Shown in pieces: positions 22,060-61,249 of a stretch of DNA of 64,000 nt. Position numbers and translations under genes: made by a program. Below the pieces are notes generated by a model. It was not told the origin of the DNA. It did no database searches and worked only from the letters and a program-made list of their open reading frames with translations. Position 1 is the first letter of the stretch. The number at the start of each line of letters is the position of its first letter. This DNA is from Candidatus Sulfomarinibacteraceae bacterium (GTDB lineage: Bacteria; Acidobacteriota; Thermoanaerobaculia; Thermoanaerobaculales; Sulfomarinibacteraceae), in NCBI GenBank assembly GCA_041552055.1, contig JBFELO010000006.1, positions 6,613 through 70,612 of the forward strand. Direction: 5' to 3'.

Positions 22060-22180
22060 CCCCGGCGCGCTCCCCGCGGTTGCCACCTTCAACAATCCTT
22101 GGCCCTGTCGGCTGTGGAATTCCGAGTCGTGATGCCCCCAAGATTGTTGAAGATGGCACGCCCGCACAACGCGCCGTTCT
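22060..22180. repeat. Composite intergenic repeat, hairpin copy (arms 22088-22103 / 22139-22153, stem word caacaatccttgg)
   Basis: Inverted repeat with a one-base bulge. The flanks match the 13340-13500 copy. Confidence 0.8.
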
Positions 22181-32966: not shown

Positions 32967-34820
<1,854 letters not shown>

Positions 34821-37488: not shown

Positions 37489-37794
37489 TCAGGCTCTCCG
37501 CCCGAGGTCCGTAAATCCTGTCGGTAATTCGATCTGGCTGCAGCGACCCCGAGATTTCCGGGTTGTCACGCCGAAGGGGCGTTCAGCCCCCGGCTGATGG
37601 TGGTCGGTCGGGCGTGGTCGGGCCGTCCGGCCCCTGGTGATCATTCCGACCAGCAAGGCCGAGACGGCTGCGCCTCCCGCGCCCACGCAGGCGAAACAGG
37701 ACGAGCACGCGCCGCCCGCGCACACGAAGGACGGCAGGTAGGCCGACAGGCCGGCCGACACGCCGACCGCGGCGGCGACATATGTGGCCCGCAT
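37489..37794 (-). CDS. Small membrane protein with a C-x4-C-x2-C-x2-C cluster between two hydrophobic segments
   Basis: ATG 37794 lies 8 nt after a strong AGGAGGTGA. Sequence: YVAAAVGVSAGLSAYLPSFVCAGGACSSCFACVGAGGAAVSALLVGMI. It is tightly packed between neighbours, with 2-3 nt gaps. Confidence 0.55.
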   Translation of the reverse strand: MRATYVAAAVGVSAGLSAYLPSFVCAGGACSSCFACVGAGGAAVSALLVGMITRGRTARPRPTDHHQPGAERPFGVTTRKSRGRCSQIELPTGFTDLGRRA

Positions 37795-39471: not shown

Positions 39472-41868
39472 TCAGAAGCGGTAGGCGACGCGCGCGAGCA
39501 CGTACCTGGGCGCGGTTGGTGAGTAGCGACGACCGCCGTACAGGTCTTTCTGAGCCTCCACCGCGTACCGCCTGTCGAACAGGTTCTGGATGAGCAGCGC
39601 CACCTCGAACTTGCGAGCCTGGAAACCCAGGGTGAGGTCGGTGACGAAGCTGTACCCCTCGTACATCTCGCTGTTGGCGTTGTCCATCCAGTACTCGCCC
39701 CAGGTGTTGGCCGTGGCCTGCACGAAGGCGCCCGAGCGGTGCACGTACCCGGCGAACACCGAGTAGTAGTGTTCCGGGATGAACGGCAGGGCGTTGCCGC
39801 TCCGGTCGAGGTTGCGGCCGAACGCCGGCTCGGAGAACTCCTTGAACGTGTAGTCGGAGTAGGTGTAGCTGCCGCCCAACGAGACCCCGAGCCACGGCAT
39901 CCAGGTGACGGCCAGCTCGAGGCCCTTCTTTTCGGTCTCACCCGCGTTGACGTAGGCGGTTTCGCCGTAGGGCTGGATCACCTGGACCACCTCGTCCTGC
40001 ACCGGGCTGTAGTACACCGCGGTGTCCAGGGTGAGGTACTGCCGGCGGGCCTTGAAGCCGACCTCGTAGTTCATGACCTTGGTGAGGTCCAGGTCGGGGT
40101 TGAGGATCAGCTCGTCCGAGGTCGGCGTCTGGGTGCCGGTCGAGATGTTGCCGTAGAAGTGGAATGCGTCGCTCAGGTTGCATACCGCACCGATTCGAGG
40201 GCTGAACGCCGTGTAGGTCTTGACGGTGTCGATCGGGCCCTCGCCGTCGACGTAGCTCCCGCTGCTCCAGTCGTAGTCGATCCACTCGTGGCCTGAGACG
40301 TCGAATTTGATGCGGTCGAATCGGACACCCACGTCCACCAACCAGCGATCTCCGAGCTGGAGCGACTCCTGGGCGTAGATGCCGTACAGCGAGGTTTCCC
40401 TGCTCAGCGACCGCATCCGGTCGCCGACCTCGTCCGACAGGGTCGAGAGGATGCGGCCGCTCGGTGTCGTCACGACGTCGGCGTAGGTGTACGCCTCTGA
40501 GTCCTGGTTGTCGGCACGCGCGGTGACCCCGCCGGTGAGAACGCCGAACCCGTGATCGTAGTCGGCCTGCAGGTCGAGACCGCCGACCCAGGTGTCGGCC
40601 TCGTTGATCCGCGCCGTGATCGGGTGGAAGTGACTCCACGAGTTGAGGTACAGCAGCGGCATGAACTGGACCTTGCCAAAGCTCTTGACCAGCTTCGAGC
40701 CGAAGAACAGGATCTCCGAGTTCCTGGAGTTGTGCTTCCACGGCTCGCCGGTGCGTTCGACATCGCCGCTCTCCAAGTAGGGGGTCCACTGGTCGACGCC
40801 GGAGTCATTGCTGACGATGAGCCGCCCCGGAAGCTGGAGATCGGCGTCGGTGTAGCTGATGAAGTTCTCCCACACCCATCCGTTCCCCAGAATCCACGAG
40901 GGCTGCAGGGTGAACTGGGTGGTGTCGAACTCGTTCCACTCGCGCCAGTCGTTGGTCGACTGACGACGGCTGAAGTTGAGATTGAAGAAGTGCGTGTCCG
41001 CGATGTCGCCGGTGTAGCCGACCTGCAGGTTCCGGGCGCCGTAGTTGCCCACGTCCAATCGCGCATTCGCACCCTGGCCGTCGAACGGGCTCTTGGTGAC
41101 GACGTTGATGGCGCCGCCGGTCGAGTTGATCCCCCACAGGGTCGAGTTCGGCCCGCGCACGACCTCGATCCTGTCCACCAGATGGGTGTCCACGAGGTCG
41201 AGCCTGGTCAGGCTGTCGGGGTCCGTGATCGGGATCCCGTTGAGCAGTAGCATGACCTCGCGGATGGCGTAGCGCGCCTTGAGCCCCGCACCCCGGATGA
41301 TCAGGCGTGCGTCGTACCCCTGATTCTTGGACTCGATCAGCGTGCCCGGGGTGCCGGCGATCGCCTCCTTGATGTTGGTCATGGGGGTCTTGGATATGGT
41401 GTCCGGGCCGATGACGCTCACGGCCGCCGGGACCTGCTCGGTGGGCCGTGCGGTCCTGGTCGCCGTGACGGTGATCGACTCTTTGAAGCGGGCGGTCAGC
41501 GCGACGTCGTGCTCCACCTCGCGGCCGTCTTCGAGCTCGATGGTGGCGGCGTAGGATTCGTACTCGGGGTTGTCCACCTTGATTGTGTAGTTCCCCGGCT
41601 CCAGCCCGGTGAACGCGTACCTGCCGTGGTCCTGAGTCGTGGCGCGGCTCGCGAGCTCGAGCTCCGCGCGCTCGAGGTGCAGGGTGACCCCCGGAACCCC
41701 GTCAAGCTGGTCGTACGAAGCGGTCACCACCCGGCCGGTTATCGCGCCGATGGCGCCGTCTTCGGCCCTCGGGTCCGCACCGGGTGCACAGACGAATATG
41801 CACAGCAAACCGCAGATCAGGTGGACGGCTCGACGTTCACCCGAATCGCGAGATCGTGAGCAGGTCAT
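39472..41868 (-). CDS. TonB-dependent receptor (CarboxypepD_reg N-domain, plug, barrel)
   Basis: Plug text IIRGAGLKARYAIREVMLLLNGIPITDPD and VVRGPNSTLWG, with a C-terminal VAYRF. ATG 41868 follows GGGAGGAAG. Confidence 0.9.
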   Translation of the reverse strand: MTCSRSRDSGERRAVHLICGLLCIFVCAPGADPRAEDGAIGAITGRVVTASYDQLDGVPGVTLHLERAELELASRATTQDHGRYAFTGLEPGNYTIKVDNPEYESYAATIELEDGREVEHDVALTARFKESITVTATRTARPTEQVPAAVSVIGPDTISKTPMTNIKEAIAGTPGTLIESKNQGYDARLIIRGAGLKARYAIREVMLLLNGIPITDPDSLTRLDLVDTHLVDRIEVVRGPNSTLWGINSTGGAINVVTKSPFDGQGANARLDVGNYGARNLQVGYTGDIADTHFFNLNFSRRQSTNDWREWNEFDTTQFTLQPSWILGNGWVWENFISYTDADLQLPGRLIVSNDSGVDQWTPYLESGDVERTGEPWKHNSRNSEILFFGSKLVKSFGKVQFMPLLYLNSWSHFHPITARINEADTWVGGLDLQADYDHGFGVLTGGVTARADNQDSEAYTYADVVTTPSGRILSTLSDEVGDRMRSLSRETSLYGIYAQESLQLGDRWLVDVGVRFDRIKFDVSGHEWIDYDWSSGSYVDGEGPIDTVKTYTAFSPRIGAVCNLSDAFHFYGNISTGTQTPTSDELILNPDLDLTKVMNYEVGFKARRQYLTLDTAVYYSPVQDEVVQVIQPYGETAYVNAGETEKKGLELAVTWMPWLGVSLGGSYTYSDYTFKEFSEPAFGRNLDRSGNALPFIPEHYYSVFAGYVHRSGAFVQATANTWGEYWMDNANSEMYEGYSFVTDLTLGFQARKFEVALLIQNLFDRRYAVEAQKDLYGGRRYSPTAPRYVLARVAYRF

Positions 41869-42464: not shown

Positions 42465-42576
42465 GCTTCTGTTCCGTTCTTCGACACGGCCACCTCTGTT
42501 GTCCTCCGAACCGGCGCCCCAGGCGCGACCCCGGGGCGGGGATCCGGGTCGGAAGGAGTTGAGCGTCAGAAGAGTT

Positions 42577-42593: not shown

Positions 42594-42823
42594 TTTCAGG
42601 GAATCAAGTTTATGTCATTTTTTTTCAATATATTGGAGTGTTTCTGGGGGACTCGACGCGACCTCGCAAGGCCGGTGTGCGACACTCGGTCTGAGACACT
42701 CGGATGGAGGCGTGGGTTGTCACTCTCAGCCAGTACAAGTGGGTTGAAATGTTGTGAATATTGAATTTACTGAGTCCTACAGCTGCCGCGATCGGCAGCC
42801 GAAGCTGTCTCACGACAGCGTTC

Positions 42824-42850
42824 GAGACACCGAGACACTGAGACACTCGG
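42824..42850. repeat. Octamer array GAGACACN x3, which is GTGTCTC x3 when read toward the minus-strand promoter
   Basis: Read directly from the sequence. The mirror copy is at 51498-51524. Confidence 0.85.
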
Positions 42851-42974
42851 GAAGGGCGTGAGGGCTTGGCCGGTGCCTGCGGCACCTGGGCTTGGGGGCC
42901 TGGGGGAGGAACGTCAGGAGAGGGGCGTCTCGGGTGTCGGATGGTGGACGCGAACTGTAGGCCGATGACAGCGC

Positions 42975-43135
42975 CTACTGCGGGCGTGCCGTCTTTGACA
43001 ATGTTGGGAGCACGACCACCCAGTCGGGGTGGAACGTTGGGTCCCAACATTGTCTAAGGGGGCAACCGCGGGGAGCGCGCCGGGGAGAGGGGACGTAGAA
43101 GCGTCTCCAACCTGTCGGACCGAGAGGCTCCGGCC
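42975..43135. repeat. Composite intergenic repeat, hairpin copy (arms 42997-43009 / 43042-43054)
   Basis: gacaatgttggga ... tcccaacattgtc, with flanks ctgcgggcgtgccg and ggggcaaccgcggggagcgcgccggggagagggg. Confidence 0.85.
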
Positions 43136-43248
43136 CACCCGCCCTCATGCCCCCACGCCCTCAAGCAAGCCCCCATGCCCTCAGGCCCTCAAGCCTTTCC
43201 CGGGCGGGTGGGGAATCCGGCTTCGACTTCGGCTACGCCGTGACGAGT

Positions 43249-43269: not shown

Positions 43270-43319
43270 CGGACGGGTGGGTGGCAGTTCCCGCCTTGAC
43301 AACCGAAAGCGCGCTCACC

Positions 43320-43802
43320 ATGATTCGGTCCATGTCGTGTACACCGATCCGGTTGTTGTTCGGCGCTTTCGTGCTGACCGCGGTGCTGGTCGGCCCCGCG
43401 ACCGCGGCGGACCCGCGGCCGCCCGGACCGAAGGACCGCTGCCCGGTGTGCGGCATGTTCGTCGAGAAGTACCGCAACTGGACCGCGACAGTCATGTTCG
43501 AGGACGGATCTCAGGTCTTCTTCGACGGGCCCAAGGACCTGTTCAAGTTCCTGCTCGACCCGACCAGGTACGGCCGCGAGAAGTCGCCGATCGCAGACGT
43601 GTTCGTGACGGACTACTACACCACCAAGCTCCTGGACGCCAGGGAGACGCTGTTCGTGGTGGGCAGCGACGTCATGGGCCCGATGGGACCCGAGCTGGTG
43701 CCAATCACGACCCCGGAGCATGCGGAGGCGTTCCGCGCCGACCACGGGGGAGAGCAGGTCCTCACCTTCGACCAGGTCACGGCGGACGCGATCCCGAAGT
43801 GA
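43320..43802 (+). CDS. nosL: NosL-family copper chaperone (exported)
   Basis: DRCPVCGMFVEKYRNWTATVMFEDGSQVFFDGPKDLFKF, with a signal peptide. Confidence 0.85.
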   Translation: MIRSMSCTPIRLLFGAFVLTAVLVGPATAADPRPPGPKDRCPVCGMFVEKYRNWTATVMFEDGSQVFFDGPKDLFKFLLDPTRYGREKSPIADVFVTDYYTTKLLDARETLFVVGSDVMGPMGPELVPITTPEHAEAFRADHGGEQVLTFDQVTADAIPK

Positions 43803-45982: not shown

Positions 45983-46990
45983 GTGATCCTGCATCCGGGC
46001 ACCCTGTCGCTCATCCTCGGCAGTGCCATCGTGCTGGTCATGGTGACGTACGGCGGTTGGATCGGGCTGCAGATCCTGTTCCGGTGGGACTTCAGCAGCA
46101 GTTCCGAGGGTCAGCTCGACCTCGAGCGCAAGACCTCGCTGGTGTCGACGCTCGCCGCCTACGCGCTCGGCTTCCAGGCGGTGTCGACCCTGCTCTACCT
46201 GTACACCGTGGACGACATCCACAGCCTCTTCGTGGGCGCCATGTGCGCCACCGGCTCGCTCAACGCCGCGCCTGGTGGCTGGGCGGTGCTGGCCGTCAAG
46301 AGCGCGGCGCTCTTTCTGTCGCTGATCTGGATCGCGTTCAACCACTTCGACCAGAGGGCGGGGGACTACCCGATCGTGCGCTTCAAGTACGCGGCGCTGC
46401 TGGTTCTCGCCCCACTCGTCGCGGCGGACCTGGCGTTACTTGTCCGCTACTTCACCGGGCTCGAACCCGAGGTCATCACCTCGTGCTGCGGCGCCCTGTT
46501 CAGCGAGGGGGGAACCGGAGTGGCGAGCGAGGTCGCGAGCCTGCCCGTGGTGCCAATGCTGTGGCTGTTCTACGCCACGGTCGCCGCGTTCCTGGCGGCC
46601 GCGCTCGTATGCGTGGTGGGCCGGGCGCGGGGCTCGAGGTACGCGCTCGCGGGAATCTCGATGGCACTTCTCGCGGTGGTGCTGGCGTCAATCGTGTCGT
46701 TCCTGTCGCTGTACGTCTACGAGCTGCCGACCCACCACTGTCCGTTCGACATGCTCCAGCGGCAATACGGCTTTATCGGCTATCCGATCTACCTGACGCT
46801 GCTCGCGGCGGTGTACTTCGGCCTCCTGCCGGGGCTGTTCCAGCCGTTGCGGAGGATCCCGAGCCTGTCAGGGTTGATCGCGGCCGCCGAGCCGAGGTGG
46901 CTGACCTGGGCGCTGGTGTCGGTGCTCGCGTTCGTCGCCATCGCCTCGTGGCCGGTGCTGTTCGGGTCGCTTACGATGATCGGTTACTGA
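45983..46990 (+). CDS. Polytopic membrane protein of unknown function (conserved-looking SCCG and HHCPFD motifs)
   Basis: About eight hydrophobic helices. The GTG lies 3 nt after the ATPase stop. Confidence 0.55.
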   Translation: MILHPGTLSLILGSAIVLVMVTYGGWIGLQILFRWDFSSSSEGQLDLERKTSLVSTLAAYALGFQAVSTLLYLYTVDDIHSLFVGAMCATGSLNAAPGGWAVLAVKSAALFLSLIWIAFNHFDQRAGDYPIVRFKYAALLVLAPLVAADLALLVRYFTGLEPEVITSCCGALFSEGGTGVASEVASLPVVPMLWLFYATVAAFLAAALVCVVGRARGSRYALAGISMALLAVVLASIVSFLSLYVYELPTHHCPFDMLQRQYGFIGYPIYLTLLAAVYFGLLPGLFQPLRRIPSLSGLIAAAEPRWLTWALVSVLAFVAIASWPVLFGSLTMIGY

Positions 46991-47162
46991 GCGAGGATCG
47001 GTCGTTTCGTATTCGGCCGTGGACTCCTGGGGAGCAATGATCGTGCGGCGAGCCGCACTGAGGGGGTGAGGGGATGACCGCCCGCTGCGTGGGCTGGGGA
47101 TGAGGGGATGAGGGCCCCCCAAGGGTCAGTTGGCCGATGCGCAGGGGAAGCCAACGACAGCG

Positions 47163-47330
47163 CCTTCTGCGGGGTGCCGTCTTTCACAATGTTGGGACCG
47201 CCGCCGCCCGGGGGGGGCGGTTCATCTGGGTCCCAACAGTGTGACAGGGGGCACCCGCGGGCAGCGCGCCGGGGAGAGGGGGCGTGGAAGCGTCTCCAGC
47301 CTATCCGACCGAGAGGCCCCGGCCCACCCG
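47163..47330. repeat. Composite intergenic repeat, hairpin copy (arms 47184-47196 / 47230-47242)
   Basis: cacaatgttggga ... tcccaacagtgtg. The flanks are nearly identical to the 42975-43135 copy. Confidence 0.85.
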
Positions 47331-47573
47331 CCGTCATGCCCGCACGCTCCGGTTGGGTGAGCGGTCCAGCGACCAGCGAAGGGCGGTCGGCGTCCGAGCC
47401 CCGAGTCCCGAGTCCCTTCTCCCGAACGAGCCGACAGCCCCCGAGCGCGAAGACAACGATCACAGGAGCTGCGGGGCCCGCCTGCGAACGACACAGGGTA
47501 AGATGTCATCGAACGTCGTGTCCGGCGCCGAGGGCGTGCTCGAAGGCCGGACAACGGAGGAGGCTGGTCGTAC

Positions 47574-50803: not shown

Positions 50804-51109
50804 AATTGATACCCGCTGTCAGATAGTACCCGCTTCAACGCGATCGAGACACCCCATCCGTCATGAACCTTGTAGCACCAACCGGATCCGGGTCTGAAGA
50901 GATCCGGGTCACATTCTTCCCCTCGTTCCCGTTCCCGTTCCCGATCCCCGGTCGCCCCGAGGACATGTCGCTGGTCGCTGGACCGCCCACCCGCTCGCAG
51001 GCGCGTGGCCCACTGCGCGCCGGTATGTCTCGATGGGGATGACCGGAGCAGCATCATCGCGCCGTCGGGGCCTGCCGATCGCGTCGATCGTCTGACACCC
51101 GAGGCGCCC

Positions 51110-51240
51110 TCTCCCCGGTGCGCTCCCCGTGGGAGCCCGGCATGACGTTTCGAGGACTGAACGCCACACGTTACCCACAACGTTGGTGGACCTCGAAACG
51201 TCATGCCCGGCACGCCCGCAGGAGGCGCGGTCATCGCCCT
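51110..51240. repeat. Composite intergenic repeat, hairpin copy with a different stem word (arms 51136-51154 / 51190-51209, ggcatgacgtttcgagg)
   Basis: Inverted repeat. The flanks gcgccctctccccggtgcgctcccc and ggcacgcccgcagg are shared with the other copies. Confidence 0.8.
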
Positions 51241-51289
51241 GCTGTTCGCGTTGACCATCTAACACCCGAGGCGCCCTCTCCCCAGCGCC

Positions 51290-51440
51290 CTCCCCGTGTG
51301 TGCCCCCCTTGACAATGTTGGGCAGCGGCCCGCCTCCCCCGTTTCGGCGACGGTGCCCCCAACATTGTCAAGAACGGCACCCCGCAGATCGCGCTGTCGT
51401 CCGCCCGCCGTTCGCGTCAATCGTCCGACACCCGAGGGGC
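51290..51440. repeat. Composite intergenic repeat, hairpin copy in inverted orientation (arms 51311-51322 / 51358-51369)
   Basis: gacaatgttggg ... cccaacattgtc, with the flank aacggcaccccgcagat. Confidence 0.85.
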
Positions 51441-51497
51441 GCTCTCCCGACGTTCCTCCCGCAAGCCCTCGAGCCCCCAAGCCAACACGTCCCTCCC

Positions 51498-51524
51498 GAG
51501 TGTCTCAAGTGTCTCAGTGTCTCA
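51498..51524. repeat. Octamer array GTGTCTCA x3
   Basis: Read directly from the sequence. It is the mirror of 42824-42850 relative to its promoter. Confidence 0.85.
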
Positions 51525-51775
51525 ATCGGCCCGTGCAACAGCCCCGACACGACCGTCCCGGCCCAGCCTGAATGTTAATAAATGGTACACCGAAGTAAGT
51601 TAGCCGGAGGTGCTGTGTTCGATCCGGACGCGTTTGGCGGCTCGTGGACGCGTCCCGGGCGTGTCTCAGGACCATTGTGAGACAGTTCCGGGCCCGGCGA
51701 TTGTGTTGTGTGTGAATGGCAGTAAATCATTGCGCCAAAAAAACTTCAGAATTCGTCCCGGCCCCGGCACAAAGG

Positions 51776-51791
51776 TGGCACGGACATTGCT
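51776..51791 (+). promoter_or_regulatory. Sigma54 (-24/-12) promoter TGGCACGgacaTTGCT
   Basis: Exact match to TGGCACG-N4-TTGCW. It lies 57 nt upstream of GTG 51847, with an A7 tract at 51737-51743. Confidence 0.7.
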
Positions 51792-51846
51792 TTAACGTGG
51801 CGCATAGCCACGGATGATGGCCGGAACGATCGGATCGAGGTGATTC

Positions 51847-52113
51847 GTGAGATGCGACGAACATGTGCAGCGTGCACTCAGGCTCACAACCGAACTCCTC
51901 GATCTCGCCAACGAGGAGCGTGAGGAATGCAACCACGACCACTGCCTGCTGCTCGACGGCATCGTGCGCGACTGCGCGATGGCGATCCGCACGCAGGCGC
52001 TCCAGTCGGTCCTGGAACTGACGGACGCAGAGGAAAGGAGAGGGAAGAACGATGTTGACGACGCCATGTCCCCGGCCCGCCGGGCCGGCATCACACCACC
52101 GAAACGAGGGTAA
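51847..52113 (+). CDS. Small helical Cys/His-rich protein (ECNHDHC), unknown function
   Basis: The GTG follows GAGGTGA. 88 aa. Third-position GC looks coding-like. Confidence 0.4.
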   Translation: MRCDEHVQRALRLTTELLDLANEEREECNHDHCLLLDGIVRDCAMAIRTQALQSVLELTDAEERRGKNDVDDAMSPARRAGITPPKRG

Positions 52114-52158: not shown

Positions 52159-55100
52159 ATGAACACGGATGTCACATCGCGTATTCGACCCGCGCGCGGG
52201 GCGCACCTCAAGCTGCTGCTCGGGGTGCTCTGCGTCGCCGTGCTGGCGGCGACACCGGCCGGCGCGCAGACCATCAAACTTGTGAATGGCGAAACCGGGG
52301 CGGACATCACCGGAACCGTCGGTTACAAGTGGACCCTCGAGCGGGACACCACCTACCACGTCGTGCCCGGACAGCCGGACTCGACCACCCCGACGCAGGC
52401 GGTGGACTTCCACGTCAGCTACTACCCGGTGGTCGCCCAGGGGTGCGTCGGTGCGTGGTGCGAATCCGTGCTCGCTCCGAGCGTGCCGGACGACACCCTG
52501 CACTACTTCCTGTCGGTGTTGCCCGAGAGCGGCTACACCATCGGCGGCGCGCAGATCGCGCCCGGACAGACCGATGTCACGGTCTACCTGAACCCGTGGC
52601 CGATCCCCACCGCGCAGATCAGCCTGTTCGTCTTCGAGGACAACTTCCCGATCAACAACGCGCCCGATCTGCCCGAGGAGTTGGGCATCGAAGGCTGGCA
52701 GGTCGTGGTCGAGGACGCGGGCGGCCGCTACGGCGCGTCCGCGGGCCAGAACATCATGGACGCGTTCGGCAACCCGCTCGGCACCACCTACGTGGACGGC
52801 TGCAACCCGTACGACCAGCTCTGCAGCCCATGGGACCCGACGTGCATACCGGAGACAGGGTCCTGCGTCGACACCCTCGGCACAGGGATGCTCTACACCG
52901 GACCGGGCGGCCGGCTGACCATCAAGAACCTGGCGCCGGGCAAGTACGGCATCATCGTGGTCCCGCCCGCCGGCCAGGGCTGGCAGCAGACCTCCACCAT
53001 CGAGGGGACCAAGGTGATCGACGCCTGGGTCAAGGCCCGCGAGCCGGAGTTCTTCGCCGAGTTCGGTCCGCCGGGACCGCACGTGTTCATCGGCTTCACC
53101 CGGACCTACGACTGCTTCAACGGTCCGTTCGACGCCCCGACGTGTGAGGGTGTAGCTGCCGGCGGCAACACCATCTCCGGCCAGATCACCAATTTGCACA
53201 TCTCGCGGCCACCCGCCACCCAGTTCTTCGGCGGCGCCCCGATCGGCCACACCACGGCGTGGGTCGCGCTCAACGACCTCAGTGCGCCGCCCAAAGGCAA
53301 GACGGTGTTCGCCGGACCGACCGGAGACGAAGGCCTCTTCTCCATCGCCGGCGTGCCTGACGGCAGCTACGAGCTCGTGGCCTTCGACAACAACCAGGAC
53401 GTCATCATCGGCTTCGTGCCCATCACGATCGGTCCCCCCGGCACGGTGCCACCACCGACGTGCGAAACCGGGGTGCCCTGCGATCTCGGCGAGGTGCCGG
53501 TCCGCCAGTGGTTCACGCGGCTCGAGAACTTCGTGTTCTACGACGACGACGGCAACGGCTACTGGGATTCCGGTGAGAGCGGCCTGCTCGAGCAGAACGT
53601 CAACGTGCGCTGGCGCGACGGCACCATCAACCAGGCGGCGGCCACCGACGGCGACGGCTTCGTGCCGTTCGACGAGGTGTTCCCGTTCTTCGCCTGGTTG
53701 GTGGCCGAGGTCGACTTCGCCCGCTTCAAGGCCACCGGCGCCACCGTGATCGTGGACGACGGCGGGGAAATCCCCACGTATACCGAGAACCTGAACTGGC
53801 CCGCCGACCCGGCCGCGGATCCCACCGTGGGCGGGCAGCTCAACCCGCAGCTGCAGCCGGACAACGGAGAGGCGCCCTACCGGATCGAGGAAGGCACGGT
53901 GCTCACCCAGGGCTTCCAGGGCTTTCTCGGCCAGACCAGCGCCATCTACTGGGGCAAGCAGGCCTGGGGTGCCAACGAGAACGGCGGCATCTCGGGCATG
54001 GTCTACTACGCCGTCACCCGCGCCGAGGACGACCCGCGCTGGGCCGCGGCCGAGGTGTGGGAGCCGGGTATCCCCGGGGTCACGCTGAATCTCTATACGG
54101 ATTACGACCTCGACGGCCTTCCCGATAACGGCGCAATCATGACGACCGTGACCGACAGCTGGGACGCCGACAAGCCGACCGGTTGCGTGTACCACGGAGA
54201 TCAGGTGTACGTCTTCGATCCGGACGGTAGCGGGTCTCAGCCCGCGCTTACTACCGACTGCTTCGACGGCCTGCGGGTCTTCAACCAGGTGCGGCCGGGC
54301 GTGTTCGATGGCGGCTACGCCTTCGGACCCGAGATCGACTGCACGGATCCAGGATTCCTGGGTGACTGCACCCTACACACCAACGTCGGCGCCGACCTCA
54401 ACAACTATCTCAAGCCCGGCGGCTACATCGTCGAGGCGATCACGCCGGACGGCTACACCCTGGTCAAGGAGGAGGACCGCAACGTCGACTTCGGCGACGA
54501 GTACGTGCCGAGCGGCCTGCTCACCCCGCCGGAGTGCGTGGGTGCCATGCGGACGGTGCCGGCCGACCTGACCCTGTTCCCGGGCGTCGAGGTCGGCTCC
54601 GGCTTCGGCGGCACTTCTCGCCCGCTGTGCGACAAGAAGCAGGTGCTGCTGTCCGGCGGCGCCAACGCGGCGGCCGAGTTCTTCTACTTCACCGAGGCGT
54701 CGATCGCCGGCCACATCGTCGGCTTCATCCTCGACGACACCGCCAACGAGTTCGACCCCCGGTCGCCGCAGTTCGGCGAGAAGTACGCGCCGCCGTGGCT
54801 GCCGGTGTCGATCCGTGACTTCAACGACAACGAGGTGGCGCGCATCTACTCGGACCAGTTCGGCCGCTACAACGTGCCGGTGCCGTCCACCTTCACGGCC
54901 AACCTGCCGATGCCGAGCGGCATGTCGCCGAACATGCTCACGGCGTGCATGAACCACGCGGTCGCGCCCGACCCGGTCACGGGAGGGTTCAAGATCGACG
55001 ACTGGTTCAACGAGCAGTACAGCCAGTTCTGCTACACCTTCCAGTACATGCCGGGCGCCACCACCTACCTCGACACCCCGGTGGTGCCGGCGGCGGCCTT

Positions 55101-57300
55101 TGCCGGACCGGACCGGTTCCCGCTCGACTGCGAGCTGCCGGACGCCACACCGATGATCCACTCGGTGAACGGCCCGGCGAACCAGGGGCCGGTGGCCAAC
55201 AGCGACGAGACCTTGACCATCCAATCGATGGGAACGGTCGATGTCCCGAACCCCGACTTCTGCGACCCGGCGGCGATCGCCGAGTGTCCGCTGGGATCGT
55301 CTCCGGACCGGAACATCCCCCGGGACTACGGCTTCGGTGAAGGTGCCACGGCGACGCTGGGTGGAGTGCCGCTCATCTGTGACGGGGACACGAACACCAT
55401 CAGCTGTACGGTGCTGGGAATCGGTGCCGGTGCCCACCAGCTGCTGGTCACCCGGGCGGGCGGTGCGACCACCGAGGTCGGCGTCACGGTCACGGTCGGT
55501 GAGACCGCGGCGGCGGTTGTGCCGACGGGTGGCTCGATCCAGGCCGCCATCGACGCCGCATCTCCCGGCGATCTGATCACCGTCGAGCCCGGGCTGTACC
55601 AGGAGATGGTCATCATGTGGAAGCCGGTCCGGCTCCAGGGATGGGGCGCGGGCTCGGTGCTCATCAACGCCATCAACACCCCGAACGAGAAGCTGCAGCT
55701 GTGGCGCGACAAGATCGCCGAGCTGGAGGCAGCCGGCGAGTTCGACCTGCTGCCCGGCCAGGAGGCCGGCGCGGGCGTCGGCTTCGAGCCCGCCACCCTG
55801 GGCACCGAGCAGGCGCCGGCGATCATCGTGCTCGGCAAGCGCAACGGTGCAGCCACATACGACAAGCACGCGGCGCGCATCGACGGCCTCGGCATGTTCG
55901 GCTCGAGCACCGGCGGCGGCGTGCTGGTCAACGGCTACGGCAAGACCCTGCAGGTCTCCAACAACCGGATCGAGAACAACACCGGCTTCTACGGCGGTGG
56001 CGTCCGCCTCGGCTACCCGCTCCTGACCGAGTTCCAGGGCCAGCCGGGCTACACCGACGCCGAGAACTCCGACATCGCGATCCACCACAACCAGATCCTG
56101 CGCAACTCCAGCCTCGAGGCCGGCGGCGGGATCGCACTCTACACCGGCAGCGACGGCTACCAGGTGTACGACAACTACATCTGCGGCAACTTCGCAGCCG
56201 GTGACGGCGCCGGCATCGGCCACGTCGGACTGTCCGACGGCGGCCGGATCGCCGACAACACCATCAACTTCAACGAAAACTTCAACCAGGGCCAGGCCAT
56301 CCACGGCGGCGGCATCCTGATCGGCGGCTCGGCCCCGATCGCTGTCGGCGAGTTCACCGAGGGCGCTGGCAACGTGGCGGTCGAGCGCAACCTGATCCTG
56401 GGCAACATGGCCGGTGCCGGCGACGGCGGCGGCATCGCGCTCAGGCAGGTCAACGGCCAGGAGGTCCGCGTCACGGGCTCGCTGCTCCAGGGCTTCACCA
56501 TCGACATCTTCAACAACACCATCGCCAACAACATCGCGGGCACGGCCGGCGGCGGCATCTCGCTCGCGGATGCGGCGCTGGTCAACATCCACCACAACAC
56601 CCTGTTCCGCAACGACAGCACCGCGACCACCGCGGCGGTGTGGGATACCATCGCGAAGGTCTCGACACCGCAACCGGCCGGGATCATGTCCTACCCCCAC
56701 AGCGCGCTGCTCGCGGCCGAGACCGGGCAGACCTTCTCCGACCCGGACCTGCGCAACAGCATCGTGATGGAGAACCGGTCGTTCTCCGTGGACGCCAATT
56801 CGGGCGACTTCCTAATCGTTCCGGACGTCACCACCGACCCCGAGGTCTTCGACGACCTCGGAACGCTCACCTGCGACGAGGGCTGCCTGCTCACGTCTGG
56901 GGCCGTCCCGTCGTTGCTGTTCGTCGCGCCGGCCAAGAACACCGGCCGCGCCGAGATCGGTTTGCCCGAGGGAACCACCGGACTGCAGATCTCGGTGGCG
57001 CCCGACGAGGGCGGCAACTTCATCCGGGTGATCTTCGGTCTCAGGCCGTACGATGCTCCGGATGCCAACCCGCTGCTCAGCAACATCGCCGACTACCACC
57101 TGCTGGTGGACAACCTGGCGGCGGTGGATGCGGCCGCTGACGTAGGCGTTGTCGACGACATCGACGGCGGGGCCCGTCCGGCAGGCGCCGGGTTCGACAT
57201 CGGCTCCGACGAGGTCGATTCGCCGGCTGCGGTCGCCGCTCCTGCCGGAGCGGGCGTGCGGGCCGTCGCCAAAGGCCGCCGCGTCGGCGGGGGGAGCTGA
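52159..57300 (+). CDS. 1713-aa secreted protein: N-terminal beta-sandwich-rich region plus a C-terminal NosD/CASH-like right-handed beta-helix
   Basis: Signal peptide LKLLLGVLCVAVLAATPAGAQ. The helix entry is GGSIQAAIDAASPGDLITVEPGLYQE. Periodic turns follow: NNRIENNTG, HHNQILRNSS, DNYICGNFA, ADNTINFNEN, ERNLILGNMAG, FNNTIANNIAG and HHNTLFRNDS. Confidence 0.85.
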   Translation: MNTDVTSRIRPARGAHLKLLLGVLCVAVLAATPAGAQTIKLVNGETGADITGTVGYKWTLERDTTYHVVPGQPDSTTPTQAVDFHVSYYPVVAQGCVGAWCESVLAPSVPDDTLHYFLSVLPESGYTIGGAQIAPGQTDVTVYLNPWPIPTAQISLFVFEDNFPINNAPDLPEELGIEGWQVVVEDAGGRYGASAGQNIMDAFGNPLGTTYVDGCNPYDQLCSPWDPTCIPETGSCVDTLGTGMLYTGPGGRLTIKNLAPGKYGIIVVPPAGQGWQQTSTIEGTKVIDAWVKAREPEFFAEFGPPGPHVFIGFTRTYDCFNGPFDAPTCEGVAAGGNTISGQITNLHISRPPATQFFGGAPIGHTTAWVALNDLSAPPKGKTVFAGPTGDEGLFSIAGVPDGSYELVAFDNNQDVIIGFVPITIGPPGTVPPPTCETGVPCDLGEVPVRQWFTRLENFVFYDDDGNGYWDSGESGLLEQNVNVRWRDGTINQAAATDGDGFVPFDEVFPFFAWLVAEVDFARFKATGATVIVDDGGEIPTYTENLNWPADPAADPTVGGQLNPQLQPDNGEAPYRIEEGTVLTQGFQGFLGQTSAIYWGKQAWGANENGGISGMVYYAVTRAEDDPRWAAAEVWEPGIPGVTLNLYTDYDLDGLPDNGAIMTTVTDSWDADKPTGCVYHGDQVYVFDPDGSGSQPALTTDCFDGLRVFNQVRPGVFDGGYAFGPEIDCTDPGFLGDCTLHTNVGADLNNYLKPGGYIVEAITPDGYTLVKEEDRNVDFGDEYVPSGLLTPPECVGAMRTVPADLTLFPGVEVGSGFGGTSRPLCDKKQVLLSGGANAAAEFFYFTEASIAGHIVGFILDDTANEFDPRSPQFGEKYAPPWLPVSIRDFNDNEVARIYSDQFGRYNVPVPSTFTANLPMPSGMSPNMLTACMNHAVAPDPVTGGFKIDDWFNEQYSQFCYTFQYMPGATTYLDTPVVPAAAFAGPDRFPLDCELPDATPMIHSVNGPANQGPVANSDETLTIQSMGTVDVPNPDFCDPAAIAECPLGSSPDRNIPRDYGFGEGATATLGGVPLICDGDTNTISCTVLGIGAGAHQLLVTRAGGATTEVGVTVTVGETAAAVVPTGGSIQAAIDAASPGDLITVEPGLYQEMVIMWKPVRLQGWGAGSVLINAINTPNEKLQLWRDKIAELEAAGEFDLLPGQEAGAGVGFEPATLGTEQAPAIIVLGKRNGAATYDKHAARIDGLGMFGSSTGGGVLVNGYGKTLQVSNNRIENNTGFYGGGVRLGYPLLTEFQGQPGYTDAENSDIAIHHNQILRNSSLEAGGGIALYTGSDGYQVYDNYICGNFAAGDGAGIGHVGLSDGGRIADNTINFNENFNQGQAIHGGGILIGGSAPIAVGEFTEGAGNVAVERNLILGNMAGAGDGGGIALRQVNGQEVRVTGSLLQGFTIDIFNNTIANNIAGTAGGGISLADAALVNIHHNTLFRNDSTATTAAVWDTIAKVSTPQPAGIMSYPHSALLAAETGQTFSDPDLRNSIVMENRSFSVDANSGDFLIVPDVTTDPEVFDDLGTLTCDEGCLLTSGAVPSLLFVAPAKNTGRAEIGLPEGTTGLQISVAPDEGGNFIRVIFGLRPYDAPDANPLLSNIADYHLLVDNLAAVDAAADVGVVDDIDGGARPAGAGFDIGSDEVDSPAAVAAPAGAGVRAVAKGRRVGGGS

Positions 57301-57329
57301 CCATGACCATTCAGACAAAGGAGCGAGCC

Positions 57330-58766
57330 ATGCAACTGCTCAAACGACTCGACCGAACCGTGGTCCTGGTCGGCGCCCTGGCCCTGGTGCTGGCGGCGAC
57401 GCCGGCCGGTGCCCAGGTGTTCGTGCAGTGCCCGGGGGACCTGGACGGTGACGCCATCCCGGATCCGCCGGCCAGCAATCTCAACCCCGAGGTGAAGTGC
57501 ACCCACCTCTCGTCCGGGGACGGCTTCGCCATGACGGCGGACGGCGAGCCGACCTACATCTTCAGCTTTGCCGACCTGACCGGCCAGGTGTCGGCCCCCA
57601 CGGGGCCCGACTTCGATCCGTTCGCCCAGGGCGCCGCGCTGCGGCGGGGCATGCTGGCCGCCGAGTGGCCGGCGCCCACCGTCGAGCTGGACGAGGGCGA
57701 CGAGTGGTACCTCACTCTGACCAACGTCGGCATGATGATCCGGCCCGACCTGTTCGACCCGCACACGGTGCACTTCCACGGCCACCCCAACATGGCCCCC
57801 GTGTTCGACGGCCTGCCCGAGTCGGGCCTGTCCATCAACATGGGTGCCAGCCTGAGCTACTACTACAAGATCGTCGAGCCGGGCACCTACATGTACCACT
57901 GCCACGTCGAGGCCACCGAGCACATGCAGATGGGCATGCTCGGCAACCTCTACGTGAACCCGGCGCAGAACGGCACGCCGCTGGGCGTGTGTGCCGGTGG
58001 CGCCCCGTGCACGCAGTTCGTCTACAACGACGGCGACGGGTCGACCGGCTACGACGTCGCCTATCCAATCCAGCTCGGCTCGTTCGACAAGGAGTTCCAC
58101 GACGCGAGCTGGAACGTGCAGCCGCTGCCGTTCGCCGACATGAAGGACGAGTACTTCATGATCAACGGCCGCGGCTACCCGGACACCATCAACGTCTCCG
58201 AAGCGTACTGCAGCGTCGGCGGCAGCGTGTACTGTGGCGGGAGGCTAGGGACCAACTTCTGTAAGAACTTCAAGATCGCGCTGCCGCCACCGCTGGGCAA
58301 CATCCAACTCGACCTCGGTGAGTGCGTCGCTTCGTTGGCGCCGCCTACCGACGGTGTCGACCGGCTCAACGGCGGCAAGCCGACGCAGCGGATCGACAGC
58401 CGCATCGTGGCGACCCAGGGCGAGAGGGTGCTGCTCAGGATCTCCAACCTGAACGTCACCACGTTCAACACCCTGACCAGCCCGTGGCTGCCGATGCAGG
58501 TCGTGGGGCGCGACGCCAAGCTGCTGCGCAGCCCGGCCGGTGGCGACATCTACCGCACCACCAACTCGGTGACCCTCGGTGGCGGCATGTCGATGGATGT
58601 GATCCTCGACACCGCCGGCGTGGCACCGGGCACCTACTTCCTGTACTCGAACAACCTGTACCAGCTAAACAATCAGCTGTGCGATCCGACAGATCTGGAT
58701 TGCTTCCAGTACGACAACTTCCAAGGCGGTCTCGGTGGCATGCTGACCGAGATCGTGATCCAGTGA
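57330..58766 (+). CDS. Two-cupredoxin-domain multicopper-oxidase subunit A. The T1 site and half of the trinuclear ligands lie in domain 1.
   Basis: ATG 57330 follows AAGGAG, and a signal peptide is present. Domain 1 carries HTVHFHGH and YHCHVEATEHMQMGM. Domain 2 has no His motif. Confidence 0.85.
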   Translation: MQLLKRLDRTVVLVGALALVLAATPAGAQVFVQCPGDLDGDAIPDPPASNLNPEVKCTHLSSGDGFAMTADGEPTYIFSFADLTGQVSAPTGPDFDPFAQGAALRRGMLAAEWPAPTVELDEGDEWYLTLTNVGMMIRPDLFDPHTVHFHGHPNMAPVFDGLPESGLSINMGASLSYYYKIVEPGTYMYHCHVEATEHMQMGMLGNLYVNPAQNGTPLGVCAGGAPCTQFVYNDGDGSTGYDVAYPIQLGSFDKEFHDASWNVQPLPFADMKDEYFMINGRGYPDTINVSEAYCSVGGSVYCGGRLGTNFCKNFKIALPPPLGNIQLDLGECVASLAPPTDGVDRLNGGKPTQRIDSRIVATQGERVLLRISNLNVTTFNTLTSPWLPMQVVGRDAKLLRSPAGGDIYRTTNSVTLGGGMSMDVILDTAGVAPGTYFLYSNNLYQLNNQLCDPTDLDCFQYDNFQGGLGGMLTEIVIQ

Positions 58767-58779
58767 GAGGAGGAGCGTC

Positions 58780-60204
58780 ATGAAAGTGAAGACCAACCGC
58801 ACTGGGCGCTGGCTCGGCGTGACGCTCGCGGCCGCCGCCCTGCTGGTGCTGACGCCGGTCGCCGAGGCGGCGATCGACGGCATCACCGGGACCGACTTCC
58901 AGTTCGTCGCGAGGGACGGCTACATCAGCACCCCCGACGGCGGCTCGATCTACTGCTGGGGCTACGCCGACGACGGCGGATCGCTCGGCGGCGCCATGCA
59001 GTACCCGGGCCCGACCCTGATCGTCAATCAGTCTGAAACTATTACGATCACCCTCAAGTCGGAGATCCTCGACACGAAGACGCCCGACCCTGCGGACTAC
59101 CTGCCGGTGTCCCTGATCTTTCCCGGCCACTCGGCGTCCGCAACCGGTGGGTCGACCGGGGCGATTACCCAGGAGTCAACGGGTCCCGCAGACACAGTGA
59201 CCTACAGCTTCATCGCCAACTCGCCCGGCACCTACCTCTACCACAGCGGCACCGATCCCAAGGTGCAGGTCGAGATGGGCCTGCTCGGCGTGATCGTCGT
59301 GCGGCCGACCGGCTACAACGATATCAACCGCACCGCCTACGGCACGGAAGCGACCGCCTACGGCCACGAGTACCTGTTCCTGCACACCGAGATGGACCCG
59401 CGGGTCCACCAGCACTACGAGTTCGGCCACGTGGGACCGGAGTGGGACAACACCGAATGGTTTTCGGTCTACTGGTTCCTCAACGGCCGCGCCGCGCCGG
59501 ACGACCTGCTCGAATCCTATGTGCCGTGGCTGCCGCACCAGCCGTACAACATCACCCCGCGCGCCCACCCGGGCGACAAGGTGCTGATGCGGGTGGTCGG
59601 CGCCGGCCGCGAGTCGCACCCGTTCCACCACCACGGCGACCACGCACAGGTGATCGCCCAGGACGGGCAGCTGCTCGACAGTGACGGCCTCGACGAGCTC
59701 GATCTCGCCTACCAGGTGTTCACCATCATGGTCAACCCGGGTCAGACCACGGACGCCTTGTTCGACTGGACCGGCGAGAAAATGGGCTGGGACATCTACG
59801 GCACCCTGGCCGACGGCATGTCGGCGCACGACTGTCTCGATATCTACAACAACGCGACCGGCGCGATGGTGCCGGACAACTACGCCGACACGGAGACGCA
59901 GGGATGCGATCCTGCTGCGGCGACCCCGTGCTTCCCCTATGAGTGGTGTCCCGACCACGACCTGCCGATCCCGGTGACCCTGCCCGAGACCCAGAACCTG
60001 GCGTTCGGCGCCTGGTGGTCGGGCAGCCCGTACCTCGGCACCGGCGGCGCGCTGCCTCCTGGTGAAGGCGGCCTCAACCCGAACTCGGGCTACCCCTTCA
60101 TGTGGCACTCCCACACCGAGAAGGAGCTCACCAACAACGACATCTTCCCCGGCGGCATGCTGACCATGTTCTTCATCGAGCCGCACGGCGTGGCGATCGA
60201 CTGA
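58780..60204 (+). CDS. Two-cupredoxin-domain multicopper-oxidase subunit B. Trinuclear-type ligands lie in domain 2, and there is no T1 cysteine.
   Basis: GGAGGAG SD and a signal peptide. Domain 1 carries degenerate IFPGH and YLYHSG. Domain 2 carries HPFHHHGDH and FMWHSH, with Ser where the T1 Cys would be. Confidence 0.85.
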   Translation: MKVKTNRTGRWLGVTLAAAALLVLTPVAEAAIDGITGTDFQFVARDGYISTPDGGSIYCWGYADDGGSLGGAMQYPGPTLIVNQSETITITLKSEILDTKTPDPADYLPVSLIFPGHSASATGGSTGAITQESTGPADTVTYSFIANSPGTYLYHSGTDPKVQVEMGLLGVIVVRPTGYNDINRTAYGTEATAYGHEYLFLHTEMDPRVHQHYEFGHVGPEWDNTEWFSVYWFLNGRAAPDDLLESYVPWLPHQPYNITPRAHPGDKVLMRVVGAGRESHPFHHHGDHAQVIAQDGQLLDSDGLDELDLAYQVFTIMVNPGQTTDALFDWTGEKMGWDIYGTLADGMSAHDCLDIYNNATGAMVPDNYADTETQGCDPAAATPCFPYEWCPDHDLPIPVTLPETQNLAFGAWWSGSPYLGTGGALPPGEGGLNPNSGYPFMWHSHTEKELTNNDIFPGGMLTMFFIEPHGVAID

Positions 60205-60220: not shown

Positions 60221-61249
60221 ATGAAGAAGCAACCACTGATGACAGCCGTCAGGCGGTCGGCGCTGGTGGCGGCGGTGCTCGCCCTCGTGGCAGTGCCCTC
60301 GTTCGCCGTCGATCTGGTCGCCGTCGCAGCCGTGTGGACGCCGCCCGGTGGCGGGACCCCGATCCCGATGTGGGCCTTCCAGGAAGGCGCGACCTGTCCG
60401 ACACCTCCCGTTGCCTGGGACGTGGGGCCCGCGATCCGGGCGACAGCCGGCGAACTGATTTCGATCAACCTCCTGAACTGCCTCGCAGAGCCGATATCGC
60501 TCATCGCGCCGGGCCTGATGCCCACGACGCCTCCCGATCCCGTGTGGGTCGACGCGGCAGGGACTTTCGTGGCGACCGGTGCGCGACCCCTGGGCGACAC
60601 CACGTCGCGGGTGCGCTCGTTCACGAACGAGGTCGCGCCGGCTGCGAGCGTGATCTACGAGTGGACCGCCAGCGCCGGATCGTTCATCTACCAGAGCGGA
60701 ACCATGGTCTCGATGCAGGTGCCGATGGGCCTGTACGGCCCGGTGATCGTTGAGGCGGCTGCTGGAGAGGCCTATACAGGGATCACGTACGGCAACGAGG
60801 CGATCCTGTTCTACTCCGAGATCGACCCGGCGGTGAATAACGCCGGTGTTCCGGCCAGTGCCGACTACCGGCCGCAGTACTTCCTGGTCAACGGCGAGTC
60901 ATACCCGACGGCCGTGCCGGAGTACGCGACGCCGCCGGCTGCGGGTGAGGATCTGCTGGTCCGGTTCTTCAACGCCGGCCTCGAGACCTCGATGCCGATG
61001 CTCGACGGCGTGCTCATGCAGGTCGTGGCCGAGGACGGCAACGTCACGCCGGGCGGCAGCGTGTATCCCGCGACGCCGGCGGCCTACTCGCTGCTGCTGC
61101 CGGCGGGCAAGACCATCGACGCCATGATCGCGGCGGTTCCGGACGGCAAGTACGCGGTGATCGACCGCACGCTGCGGCTCGACAACGGACCTGGTGTCGA
61201 CGACGACGGCGGCCAGCTGGTGTTCCTCGACTACGCGCCCGCACCGTAG
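60221..61249 (+). CDS. Two-cupredoxin-domain paralogue C with no histidine at all
   Basis: GGAGGAG SD and a signal peptide. MCO-like strand text is FIYQSGTMVSMQVPMGLYGPVIVE and YFLVNGESYP. I found zero His in the 342 aa. Confidence 0.7.
   Translation: MKKQPLMTAVRRSALVAAVLALVAVPSFAVDLVAVAAVWTPPGGGTPIPMWAFQEGATCPTPPVAWDVGPAIRATAGELISINLLNCLAEPISLIAPGLMPTTPPDPVWVDAAGTFVATGARPLGDTTSRVRSFTNEVAPAASVIYEWTASAGSFIYQSGTMVSMQVPMGLYGPVIVEAAAGEAYTGITYGNEAILFYSEIDPAVNNAGVPASADYRPQYFLVNGESYPTAVPEYATPPAAGEDLLVRFFNAGLETSMPMLDGVLMQVVAEDGNVTPGGSVYPATPAAYSLLLPAGKTIDAMIAAVPDGKYAVIDRTLRLDNGPGVDDDGGQLVFLDYAPAP

Follow-up and report, generated by a model that had tools for sequence, protein, structure and literature searches.

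The window analysed here is a 64,000 nt stretch (positions 6,613 to 70,612) of contig JBFELO010000006.1 from a Candidatus Sulfomarinibacteraceae bacterium (Acidobacteriota). It contains two operons downstream of two sigma-54 promoters, which we call P1 and P2, and the gene for a candidate activator of these promoters, which has a PAS domain with four cysteines (Cys4-PAS). P1 (TGGCACGgacaTTGCT, 51776-51791, plus strand) and P2 (CGGCACGgatcTTGCG, 42592-42577, minus strand) are both intergenic and oriented towards the downstream operon. Both have the -24/-12 element TGGCAC-N5-TTGC, with exactly one helical turn between the GG at -24 and the GC at -12. From the sequence, transcription is predicted to start near 51801-51803 at P1 and near 42565-42567 at P2. 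The string GGCACG-N4-TTGC occurs twice in the 64 kb, at P1 and P2 only, where 0.25 occurrences are expected; a count of 2 was attained by 3 of 100 shuffles of the window. No sigma-70-like promoter was found in the P1 region (51250-51900) or on the minus strand near P2, which ruled out the AT-rich blocks described below as sigma-70 promoters.

The regions upstream of P1 and P2 are built from the same parts in the same order. A direct array of three (T/C)GTCTCA copies comes first, then a proximal GTCTCA site with an AT-rich block on either side, and then the -24/-12 element. Site positions are counted from the T of TGGCAC. At P1 (all on the plus strand) the putative distal enhancer at 51496-51524 has three direct TGTCTCA copies (51501-51507, 51510-51516 and 51518-51524) at -275, -266 and -258, in steps of 9 and 8 bp. 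It is followed by a degenerate inverted partner (GTGCAACAG, 51533-51541), which aligns with cgTGAGACAgc of P2, and by the upstream AT-rich block (gaatgttaataaatggtacaccgaagtaagttag, 51571-51604). The proximal enhancer (51662-51684) is a perfect inverted repeat, TGTCTCA-N9-TGAGACA, with halves at 51662-51668 (-114) and 51678-51684 (-97), and the promoter-proximal AT-rich block (51716-51755) includes an A7 tract (51737-51743). At P2 (all on the minus strand) the distal enhancer (42806-42850) has three direct TGTCTC copies at 42845-42840, 42837-42832 and 42829-42824 (-253, -245 and -237) and an inverted GAGACA at 42811-42806 (-219), 18 bp beyond the third array copy. The upstream AT-rich block (cagtaaattcaatattcacaacatttcaacc) is at 42740-42772. 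The proximal enhancer (42678-42703) has TGTCTCA at 42698-42692 (-106) and, 14 bp further downstream, the degenerate direct copy TGTCGCA, and the block closest to the promoter (42617-42652) includes an A8 tract (42618-42625).

A preliminary description of the window had reported the distal arrays, the proximal sites, the A7/A8 tracts and the -24/-12 elements of both promoters, and all of them lie where it had placed them. The spacer of the P1 palindrome, given there as N8, is in fact N9. At P2 the halves of the proximal element are not inverted: CCGAGTGTCTCAGA and CCGAGTGTCGCACA follow each other in direct orientation with a 14 bp period.

The octamer GTGTCTCA occurs six times in the window, always within the P1 and P2 regions, where 8 of the 12 matches to the heptamer GTGTCTC are also found. 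No cluster of at least three relaxed cores within 60 bp is present elsewhere in the window and none of the remaining sigma-54-like matches has GTCTC sites upstream. Neither the activator gene nor the kinase genes next to it are preceded by GTCTC sites, and the idea of autoregulation was therefore dropped. A triplet near 2.8 kb (TCGTGTCTTCGTGCCTTCGTGG) was rejected as a chance occurrence: it has no GTCTC core and there is no sigma-54-like match nearby.

We fetched 80 syntenic loci from one-genome-per-species collections by means of a 335-amino-acid protein encoded midway between the promoters (loci are numbered L001 onwards). Only 7 of the 80 have at least three TGTCTC/GAGACA sites within 60 bp. 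Six of these seven are labelled Holophagae, Thermoanaerobaculia, Thermoanaerobaculales or Acidobacteria; L013 is from Thermoanaerobaculales. No such cluster is present in about 70 loci from Nitrospirota, Desulfobacterota or Gammaproteobacteria. In the related loci the full module starts with the triple direct array and an inverted GAGACA and continues with the proximal site, which lies between two AT-rich blocks, as far as TGG(C/T)A(C/T)-N5-NTGC. For counting, a relaxed -24/-12 match was taken as a module if the 340 bp upstream contained at least three exact cores. The window and the seven related loci (180 kb) have 13 modules in comparison with 0.02 expected (100 dinucleotide shuffles, maximum 1). 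The 73 remaining syntenic loci, which are from other phyla (1.13 Mb), have none despite 101 relaxed sigma-54-like matches. The module lies upstream of the orthologous operons in at least ten other contigs (Holophagae, Thermoanaerobaculia and unassigned); GG/GC is kept at fixed spacing in 14 aligned promoters and is kept in three more. Near-exact matches to the window are present in Joint Genome Institute (JGI) metagenome contigs and two NCBI metagenome-assembled genomes; the near-identical strains (L001-L006) have 0-1 differences in the promoter regions, so that polymorphism is uninformative. Taken together, the data show that the module is real, far beyond chance and evolutionarily conserved.

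Part of the likeness between P1 and P2 extends outside the module. P1 and P2 can be aligned with about 85% identity along about 170 bp that stop just beyond the array, after which the alignment decays, and the upstream (outer) half of this similarity belongs to an intergenic repeat family with dispersed copies. The family, which contains CCCAACATTGTCAA/TTGACAATGTTGGG, has at least seven copies in the window (2910-3180, 13314-13720, 18700-18980, 22044-22180, 42923-43160, 47110-47380 and 51064-51480), with three tandem units of about 167 bp each at 51.07-51.48 kb. Both GTCTC arrays adjoin a repeat copy in the same orientation. This is what would be seen if the common architecture had simply arrived with a dispersed or mobile repeat that had landed beside both promoters, and had no regulatory meaning. 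However, the repeat family ends at ...TCCGACACCCGAGG, and its other copies are not continued by an array: there is none at the copies at 18.7, 47.1, 13.6 and 2.9 kb or at the inner tandem units at 51.07 and 51.24 kb. A further 60-90 bp is common to the P1 and P2 regions alone, outside the dispersed repeat. In ten contigs that do not have the repeat, the array, proximal site, AT-rich blocks and promoter are at the same distances, and shuffling does not account for the 13 modules. The cross-genome conservation effectively refutes a repeat insertion as the explanation, and we regard it as extremely improbable. The scenario in which the arrays would be just another word of the repeat family, which the preliminary description had put forward as its own possible refutation, fails for the same reasons. 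A different tandem repeat (gtgggggcgcgc.tgagatgcgcgcctac...) is found directly upstream of the P1-type array in two Holophagae loci (L048, 14250-14650; L068, 14342-14740) and mirrors the repeat build-up upstream of the arrays in the window.

We also scanned metagenome contigs for the triple array alone, without regard to context. The matches listed are mostly unrelated long tandem repeats. One locus recovered by this DNA pattern alone, L135, has a complete module with sites at 0, 9, 17, 36, 162 and 182 and a TGGCACGgatcTGCA-type promoter element (TGGCACGgatgcTGCA) at +279, followed by the orthologous operon for the giant protein and the multicopper oxidases. Separately, several unrelated GC-rich contigs (L105/L151/L136, L133/L134, L117 and L127) have three direct TGTCTCA copies and inverted GAGACA copies 20-110 bp away, with no sigma-54 promoter. 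The same word, in a comparable arrangement of direct and inverted copies, seems to be in use in other systems.

The geometry of the module is best seen when modules of the P1 kind (plus-type) and of the P2 kind (minus-type) are taken separately. The array lies at -258 to -283 in plus-type modules (at -274 to -283 / -258 to -264 in the nine besides P1) and at -222 to -263 in minus-type modules. The inverted copy, which is usually present, lies at -233 to -245 and at -198 to -231, respectively, 14-36 bp and mostly 17-19 bp beyond the array; an intact GAGACA/GAGACG is present 19-26 bp beyond the third copy in L007, L008, L013, L045, L135 and L210. Of the 10 plus-type modules, 8 have the forward half of the proximal site at -113 to -117, and the other two have its reverse half at -95. 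In seven of the eight forward-half modules the partner half has 4-6 of 6 matches (3 of 6 in L008); in P1 of the window both halves are present, which makes a complete palindrome. The minus-type proximal site is at -80 to -114, and the P2-like layout recurs in the minus-type modules of L008, L013, L048, L068, L207 and L210. The distance from the third array copy to the proximal site is 144-148 bp in all nine measurable plus-type modules and 120-164 bp in minus-type modules. The consensus across 90 sites is (T/C)GTCTC(A/G), the last position being A in 65 and G in 21. CGTCTCA copies are found in the minus-type arrays of two Holophagae genomes, and those of L207 are mixed.

AT content peaks at 60-70% between -60 and -25 in all modules, in comparison with about 30-35% in neighbouring bins. 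Plus-type modules have a second peak of 52-60% at -200 to -171 (a block from about -205 to -175), where DNA nearby is again at about 30-35%. The AT-rich blocks probably make the DNA bendable. The A7 and A8 tracts that had been singled out at P1 and P2 are present, but the feature common to the modules is the AT-rich block, of which the tracts are a local form; runs of at least five A or T occur in the -60 to -20 zone in 6 of the first 13 modules. The architecture had also been called unusual. This is true of the distal triple direct array and the fixed 145 bp spacing, which are the only unusual parts in comparison with the standard sigma-54 layout, to which an enhancer, AT-rich DNA and a -24/-12 element all belong. 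As geometry, the distal position, the direct repeats in 8-9 bp steps, the 17-19 bp half-site separation and the fixed 145 bp spacing are unusual.

Between the two promoters are genes for NosL, an FtsX/ABC transporter, the 335-amino-acid membrane protein (45983-46990, plus strand), SCO1/SenC and a periplasmic binding protein. The membrane protein belongs to no Pfam or NCBIfam family and has 299 relatives in Acidobacteriota, Nitrospirota, Desulfobacterota and Gammaproteobacteria; in annotated Acidobacteriota loci it is part of a NosL-FtsX-ABC-...-SCO1 cluster. There is a sigma-70-like promoter (TTGACA-17-CATGAT, 43296-43324, plus strand) immediately upstream of the nosL start, and comparable TTGACA boxes precede nosL in L008 and L013. 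The minus-type array, judged by eye, is about 30 bp from the nosL TTGACA box in L008 and about 200 bp from it in L013, which could mean that the distal arrays mainly regulate the divergent neighbour (nosL-ABC-SCO1 at P2, the upstream gene at P1) and that the proximal site alone serves sigma-54. The variable distance from array to proximal site in minus-type modules points the same way. In plus-type modules, however, the proximal site is 144-148 bp and the promoter about 275 bp away from the array in any upstream context, and in the window the nosL promoter is about 450 bp from the array. The two roles would also be compatible with each other. We therefore think it very unlikely that the divergent genes are the main targets.

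Downstream of plus-type modules are the small Cys/His gene, the giant beta-helix gene together with multicopper-oxidase-like genes, or both. In the window, the first P1 gene (51847-52113, plus strand) encodes a small cytoplasmic Cys/His protein of 88 amino acids (C..H...C.HD.CLLLDG.VRDC) with three cysteines that are invariant in seven genomes. It matches no family in Pfam or NCBIfam, and in some genomes its gene has a module of its own beside the activator gene. It is followed on the same strand by the gene for a giant beta-helix protein of 1713 amino acids (52159-57300), which has a weak NosD-like N-terminal match, and by three consecutive multicopper-oxidase-like genes (57303-58766, 58780-60204 and 60221-61249; Cu-oxidase_2/_3). 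Orthologues of the giant beta-helix gene follow plus-type modules in L007, L048, L064, L068, L135 and L008 (start only); one also follows the L209 promoter, and in L045 it is positioned after the multicopper-oxidase genes. Multicopper-oxidase-like orthologues are downstream in L007, L045, L064, L135 and L209.

Minus-type modules precede the genes for a secreted Cys-rich protein and a TonB-dependent receptor. In the window the Cys-rich protein is encoded by the first P2 gene (42033-42464, minus strand; exact start uncertain) and has a signal peptide, YYCCCPGECHCTADCCNHGP and a C-terminal SPRAPP. The gene was not called by the JGI pipeline, which leaves 1.46 kb annotated as intergenic. The pattern CCC-x(3-5)-C-x-C-T-x2-CC-x-H-G and the C-terminal SPRAPP are invariant in five genomes, and the gene is always upstream of a TonB-dependent receptor gene; the receptor that follows it is orthologous in L008, L013, L048, L068, L207 and L210. 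The protein is a candidate copper-binding protein or carrier. The 710 nt stretch between P2 and the receptor gene was considered as a known riboswitch or leader and rejected: an Rfam scan of the window at the gathering threshold gave no matches, and the stretch encodes this conserved protein. The operon continues on the minus strand with the TonB-dependent receptor (39472-41868), a 204-amino-acid protein (38798-39412), a NapH/NosR-like Fe-S protein (37798-38829), a 101-amino-acid protein (37489-37794) and a second TonB-dependent receptor (35192-37486). The names "copper-uptake operon" for the P2 genes and "oxidase operon" for the P1 genes are based on domain content only.

The candidate activator (32967-34820, plus strand) has the domain order REC, Cys4-PAS, sigma-54 AAA+ with a GSYTGA loop, and HTH_8 (matches to Response_reg, PAS_8, PF00158 at E = 1.7e-69, and HTH_8). 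The protein has 617 amino acids, with the PAS domain at about residues 150-311. BLAST detected it as the sole sigma-54 AAA+ activator in the window, and no other DNA-binding regulator was seen in the annotated neighbourhoods. Syntenic orthologues are present at the same relative position in the module-bearing loci of sufficient length, with 52-61% identity in L008, L013 (at the contig edge), L045, L048, L068, L207 and L210. There is a minus-type module near the activator relative of L207, and L210 has both module types near its relative, at distances like those in the window. In L008 the stop codon of the activator gene abuts a compact module placed to drive the small Cys/His gene. The enhancer-binding proteins of the module-less Desulfobacterota loci are 38-46% identical to the activator (BLAST), and the two that were aligned both lack the Cys motif.

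A database search with the activator returned more than 100 clusters at 47-84% identity, with generic names where there are any. The motif C-x9-11-C-G-x4-C-x2-C is present in every sampled relative except the variant P0091, all sampled relatives have an LGVSRAT(L/F)YR-type helix in the helix-turn-helix (HTH), and in 32 relatives the four cysteines show little or no variation. The sensor segment was confidently modelled as a PAS fold (mean predicted local distance difference test score 89.6, predicted template modelling score 0.82). The model resembles cofactor-binding PAS domains (LOV, the haem-PAS domains of FixL and DosP and the FAD-PAS domain of NifL), and its four cysteines are in the helical stretch (residues 68-87) that joins the second strand to the third. 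No solved Cys4-PAS homologue was found. None of the NCBIfam equivalogs for enhancer-binding proteins (AtoC, NtrC, NifA, ZraR, NorR, PrpR and others) reached its cut-off, the best match being AtoC with 368 bits in comparison with a cut-off of 714.

Next to the activator gene, on the plus strand, are genes for a HisKA_2 kinase (29257-30675), a single REC protein (30676-31080) and a GAF-PAS-HisKA_2 kinase (31138-32769), which are likely to be its cognate signalling genes. The kinase genes share an 88 nt stretch of 82% identity across the H-box (30040-30127 and 32128-32215), which indicates that the two kinases are paralogous and flank the single REC gene. HisKA_2 kinases also adjoin the activator in L207, L208 and L210, and the order kinase-REC-kinase-activator recurs in L208. 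MG2 and Cu-binding_MopE proteins with multihaem cytochrome domains adjoin the activator in L207 (3591-5618) and L210 (11789-14135), which strengthens the copper link of the neighbourhood. A tandem array at 26123-28187, in which nine to ten units of about 210-219 nt are 60-85% identical, is probably the coding region of a repetitive domain.

Taken together, the sequence comparisons suggest that P1 and P2 are probably two sigma-54 promoters of one conserved regulon run by the Cys4-PAS activator via a bipartite enhancer. This was the proposal of the preliminary description, in which one enhancer-binding protein co-controls both operons via GTCTCA sites and the Cys4 activator is the obvious candidate. 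All the computational tests that could be applied support it. The module is conserved upstream of the orthologues of both operons, and the choice of activator gains from the orthologues in the same loci, from its being the only such protein in the window and from its conserved cysteines. In this scheme the C-terminal HTH of the activator would bind the GTCTCA half-sites at the distal and proximal enhancers, and the clustered half-sites would allow it to oligomerise into its active form. Looping over the AT-rich DNA would then bring it to the closed complex of sigma-54 RNA polymerase, the promoter would be opened at the cost of ATP, and both operons would be switched on together. The input may be phosphorylation by the HisKA_2 kinases encoded next to the activator, a ligand of the PAS domain with its four cysteines (candidates are a metal, an Fe-S cluster or the redox state), or both, and the physiology may be related to copper.

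Several observations weigh against this proposal. No RpoN-box motif was found in any open reading frame of the window and loci L001-L086, a scope that does not include the rest of the genome, and the activator of the window has GSYTGA in place of GAFTGA (its closest relatives have GAYTGA and other orthologues GAFTGA). A two-fold symmetric Fis-type HTH dimer is not expected on direct repeats in 8-9 bp steps, and the classical NtrC-type half-site separation is shorter than the 17-19 bp found here. Variation in the activator HTH does not follow the TGTCTC and CGTCTC variants. In the interval between enhancer and promoter the IHF consensus WATCAANNNNTTR is not clearly enriched (mean best score 6.7 of 9, in comparison with 6.3 when shuffled); a score of at least 8 is reached in 3 of 17 modules and in 5% of shuffles. 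Among other loci, L209 has the promoter with only loose sites, and L208, which has an activator relative, has no module within 10 kb. Finally, 79 of the 80 array loci listed in the metagenome scan are without a module; the triple array alone is not diagnostic outside this lineage.

Some of these points would be accounted for if the GTCTCA sites were bound by another protein, such as a second regulator, co-activator or repressor with its gene elsewhere, at promoters that are still sigma-54-dependent, with the syntenic activator binding another sequence or acting from solution. In general, direct repeats in 8-9 bp steps are more like iteron or response-regulator sites than the palindromes of enhancer-binding proteins, and HTH and site variants are not matched. 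The unrelated contigs with the same word and no sigma-54 promoter suggest that other proteins probably recognise it. Yet no other DNA-binding regulator is conserved in the neighbourhoods, the sites are at the usual enhancer positions and in L008 the compact module comes directly after the activator stop codon. Additionally, the modules are found together with the Cys4 activator, and none is present in the 73 syntenic loci without it. On balance we consider binding by another protein unlikely and continue to favour the Cys4-PAS activator.

A more far-reaching version of the activator model, which we put forward as speculative and rather doubtful, is that the bipartite enhancer is a fixed-geometry nucleoprotein scaffold and that the regulon is an undescribed copper-acquisition pathway of Acidobacteriota. 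The half-sites (three direct, usually one inverted and one or two proximal), 144-148 bp apart, could engage most or all of the HTHs of a hexamer. The activator hexamer could then wrap about 145 bp of DNA, an assembly that is not described for enhancer-binding proteins. The ribosomally made, secreted Cys-rich protein (CCC..C.C..CC.H) may be an extracellular or periplasmic copper carrier that is imported or handled via the TonB-dependent receptors, and the Cys4-PAS domain may sense metal status directly.

An activator acting from an enhancer on a sigma-54 promoter is a known system; what is new is this proposed copper-linked regulon, and its enhancer geometry is unusual. Specialists would expect enhancer sites upstream of sigma-54 promoters, and it is the deep conservation and rigid spacing of the module, together with the Cys4-PAS sensor and the uncharacterised copper-linked genes, that make a good experimental lead. 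A candidate DNA motif, a candidate regulon and a testable sensor domain are provided for an uncharacterised activator subfamily (more than 100 sequence clusters with generic annotation, mostly from uncultured Acidobacteriota). TonB-dependent receptors, the Cys-rich protein missed by the gene caller, the small Cys/His protein, the giant beta-helix protein and three multicopper-oxidase-like proteins are brought together as one putative co-regulated unit. The unit lies beside NosL and SCO1 and elsewhere beside MopE-type copper proteins, and gives a lead on copper acquisition or handling by abundant uncultured environmental bacteria. Additionally, the 145 bp spacing and the direct-repeat array are useful material on the assembly of enhancer-binding proteins on DNA.

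A literature search for a GTCTCA motif with sigma-54, or for Acidobacteria with an enhancer-binding protein and copper, returned nothing relevant. The systems that follow are the closest known ones. The NtrC-type enhancers (such as glnAp2), and the sigma-54 paradigm of bacterial enhancer-binding proteins in general, are like the modules described here in having a GG/GC promoter, sites about 100-150 bp upstream, AT-rich bendable DNA between them and an activator with REC, AAA+ and HTH_8 domains. They differ in several respects. The sites here are (T/C)GTCTCA, there is a second, distal cluster (-235 to -283) of three direct copies in 8-9 bp steps, the distance from the distal to the proximal sites is fixed at about 145 bp, and half-sites are 17-19 bp apart in comparison with about 10-11 bp. 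The activator scores 354 bits against the NtrC cut-off of 559 and has the additional Cys4-PAS domain.

In the norVW enhancer of NorR, three inverted repeats (GT-N7-AC) are all required for assembly of the oligomer, and the sensor of NorR is a GAF domain with non-haem iron. The likeness is in the clustered sites upstream of a sigma-54 promoter, which are a plausible scaffold for an oligomer, and in an N-terminal sensor of the metal or cofactor type. In contrast with NorR, we find three direct heptamers, an inverted one and a separate proximal site, together with a PAS domain with four cysteines, and the activator scores 315 bits against a cut-off of 476. The upstream activator sequence of NifA is TGT-N10-ACA. 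It is also an inverted repeat of the TGT...ACA form upstream of a sigma-54 promoter with a bend between, whereas the spacing here is TGT-N17-ACA, the conserved core GTCTCA is more than TGT/ACA, and the activator scores 357 bits against the NifA cut-off of 529.

By analogy, the functionally closest known system is CorSR-curA of Myxococcus xanthus, where a sigma-54-dependent response regulator controls a copper-responsive multicopper-oxidase cluster with several putative sigma-54 promoters (PMC3707914). CorR is likewise a REC-AAA+-HTH_8 activator of a copper-responsive cluster that includes a multicopper oxidase. It differs in having no PAS domain or Cys4 motif, in receiving its signal from a periplasmic-sensing kinase and in that no enhancer motif has been defined for it (PMC3707914). 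Additionally, the targets of CorR are for copper tolerance (CopA and CuoA), whereas the genes downstream of P1 and P2 look like acquisition or maturation genes, because they include TonB-dependent receptors, are adjacent to NosL and SCO1 and have MopE-domain neighbours in other genomes.

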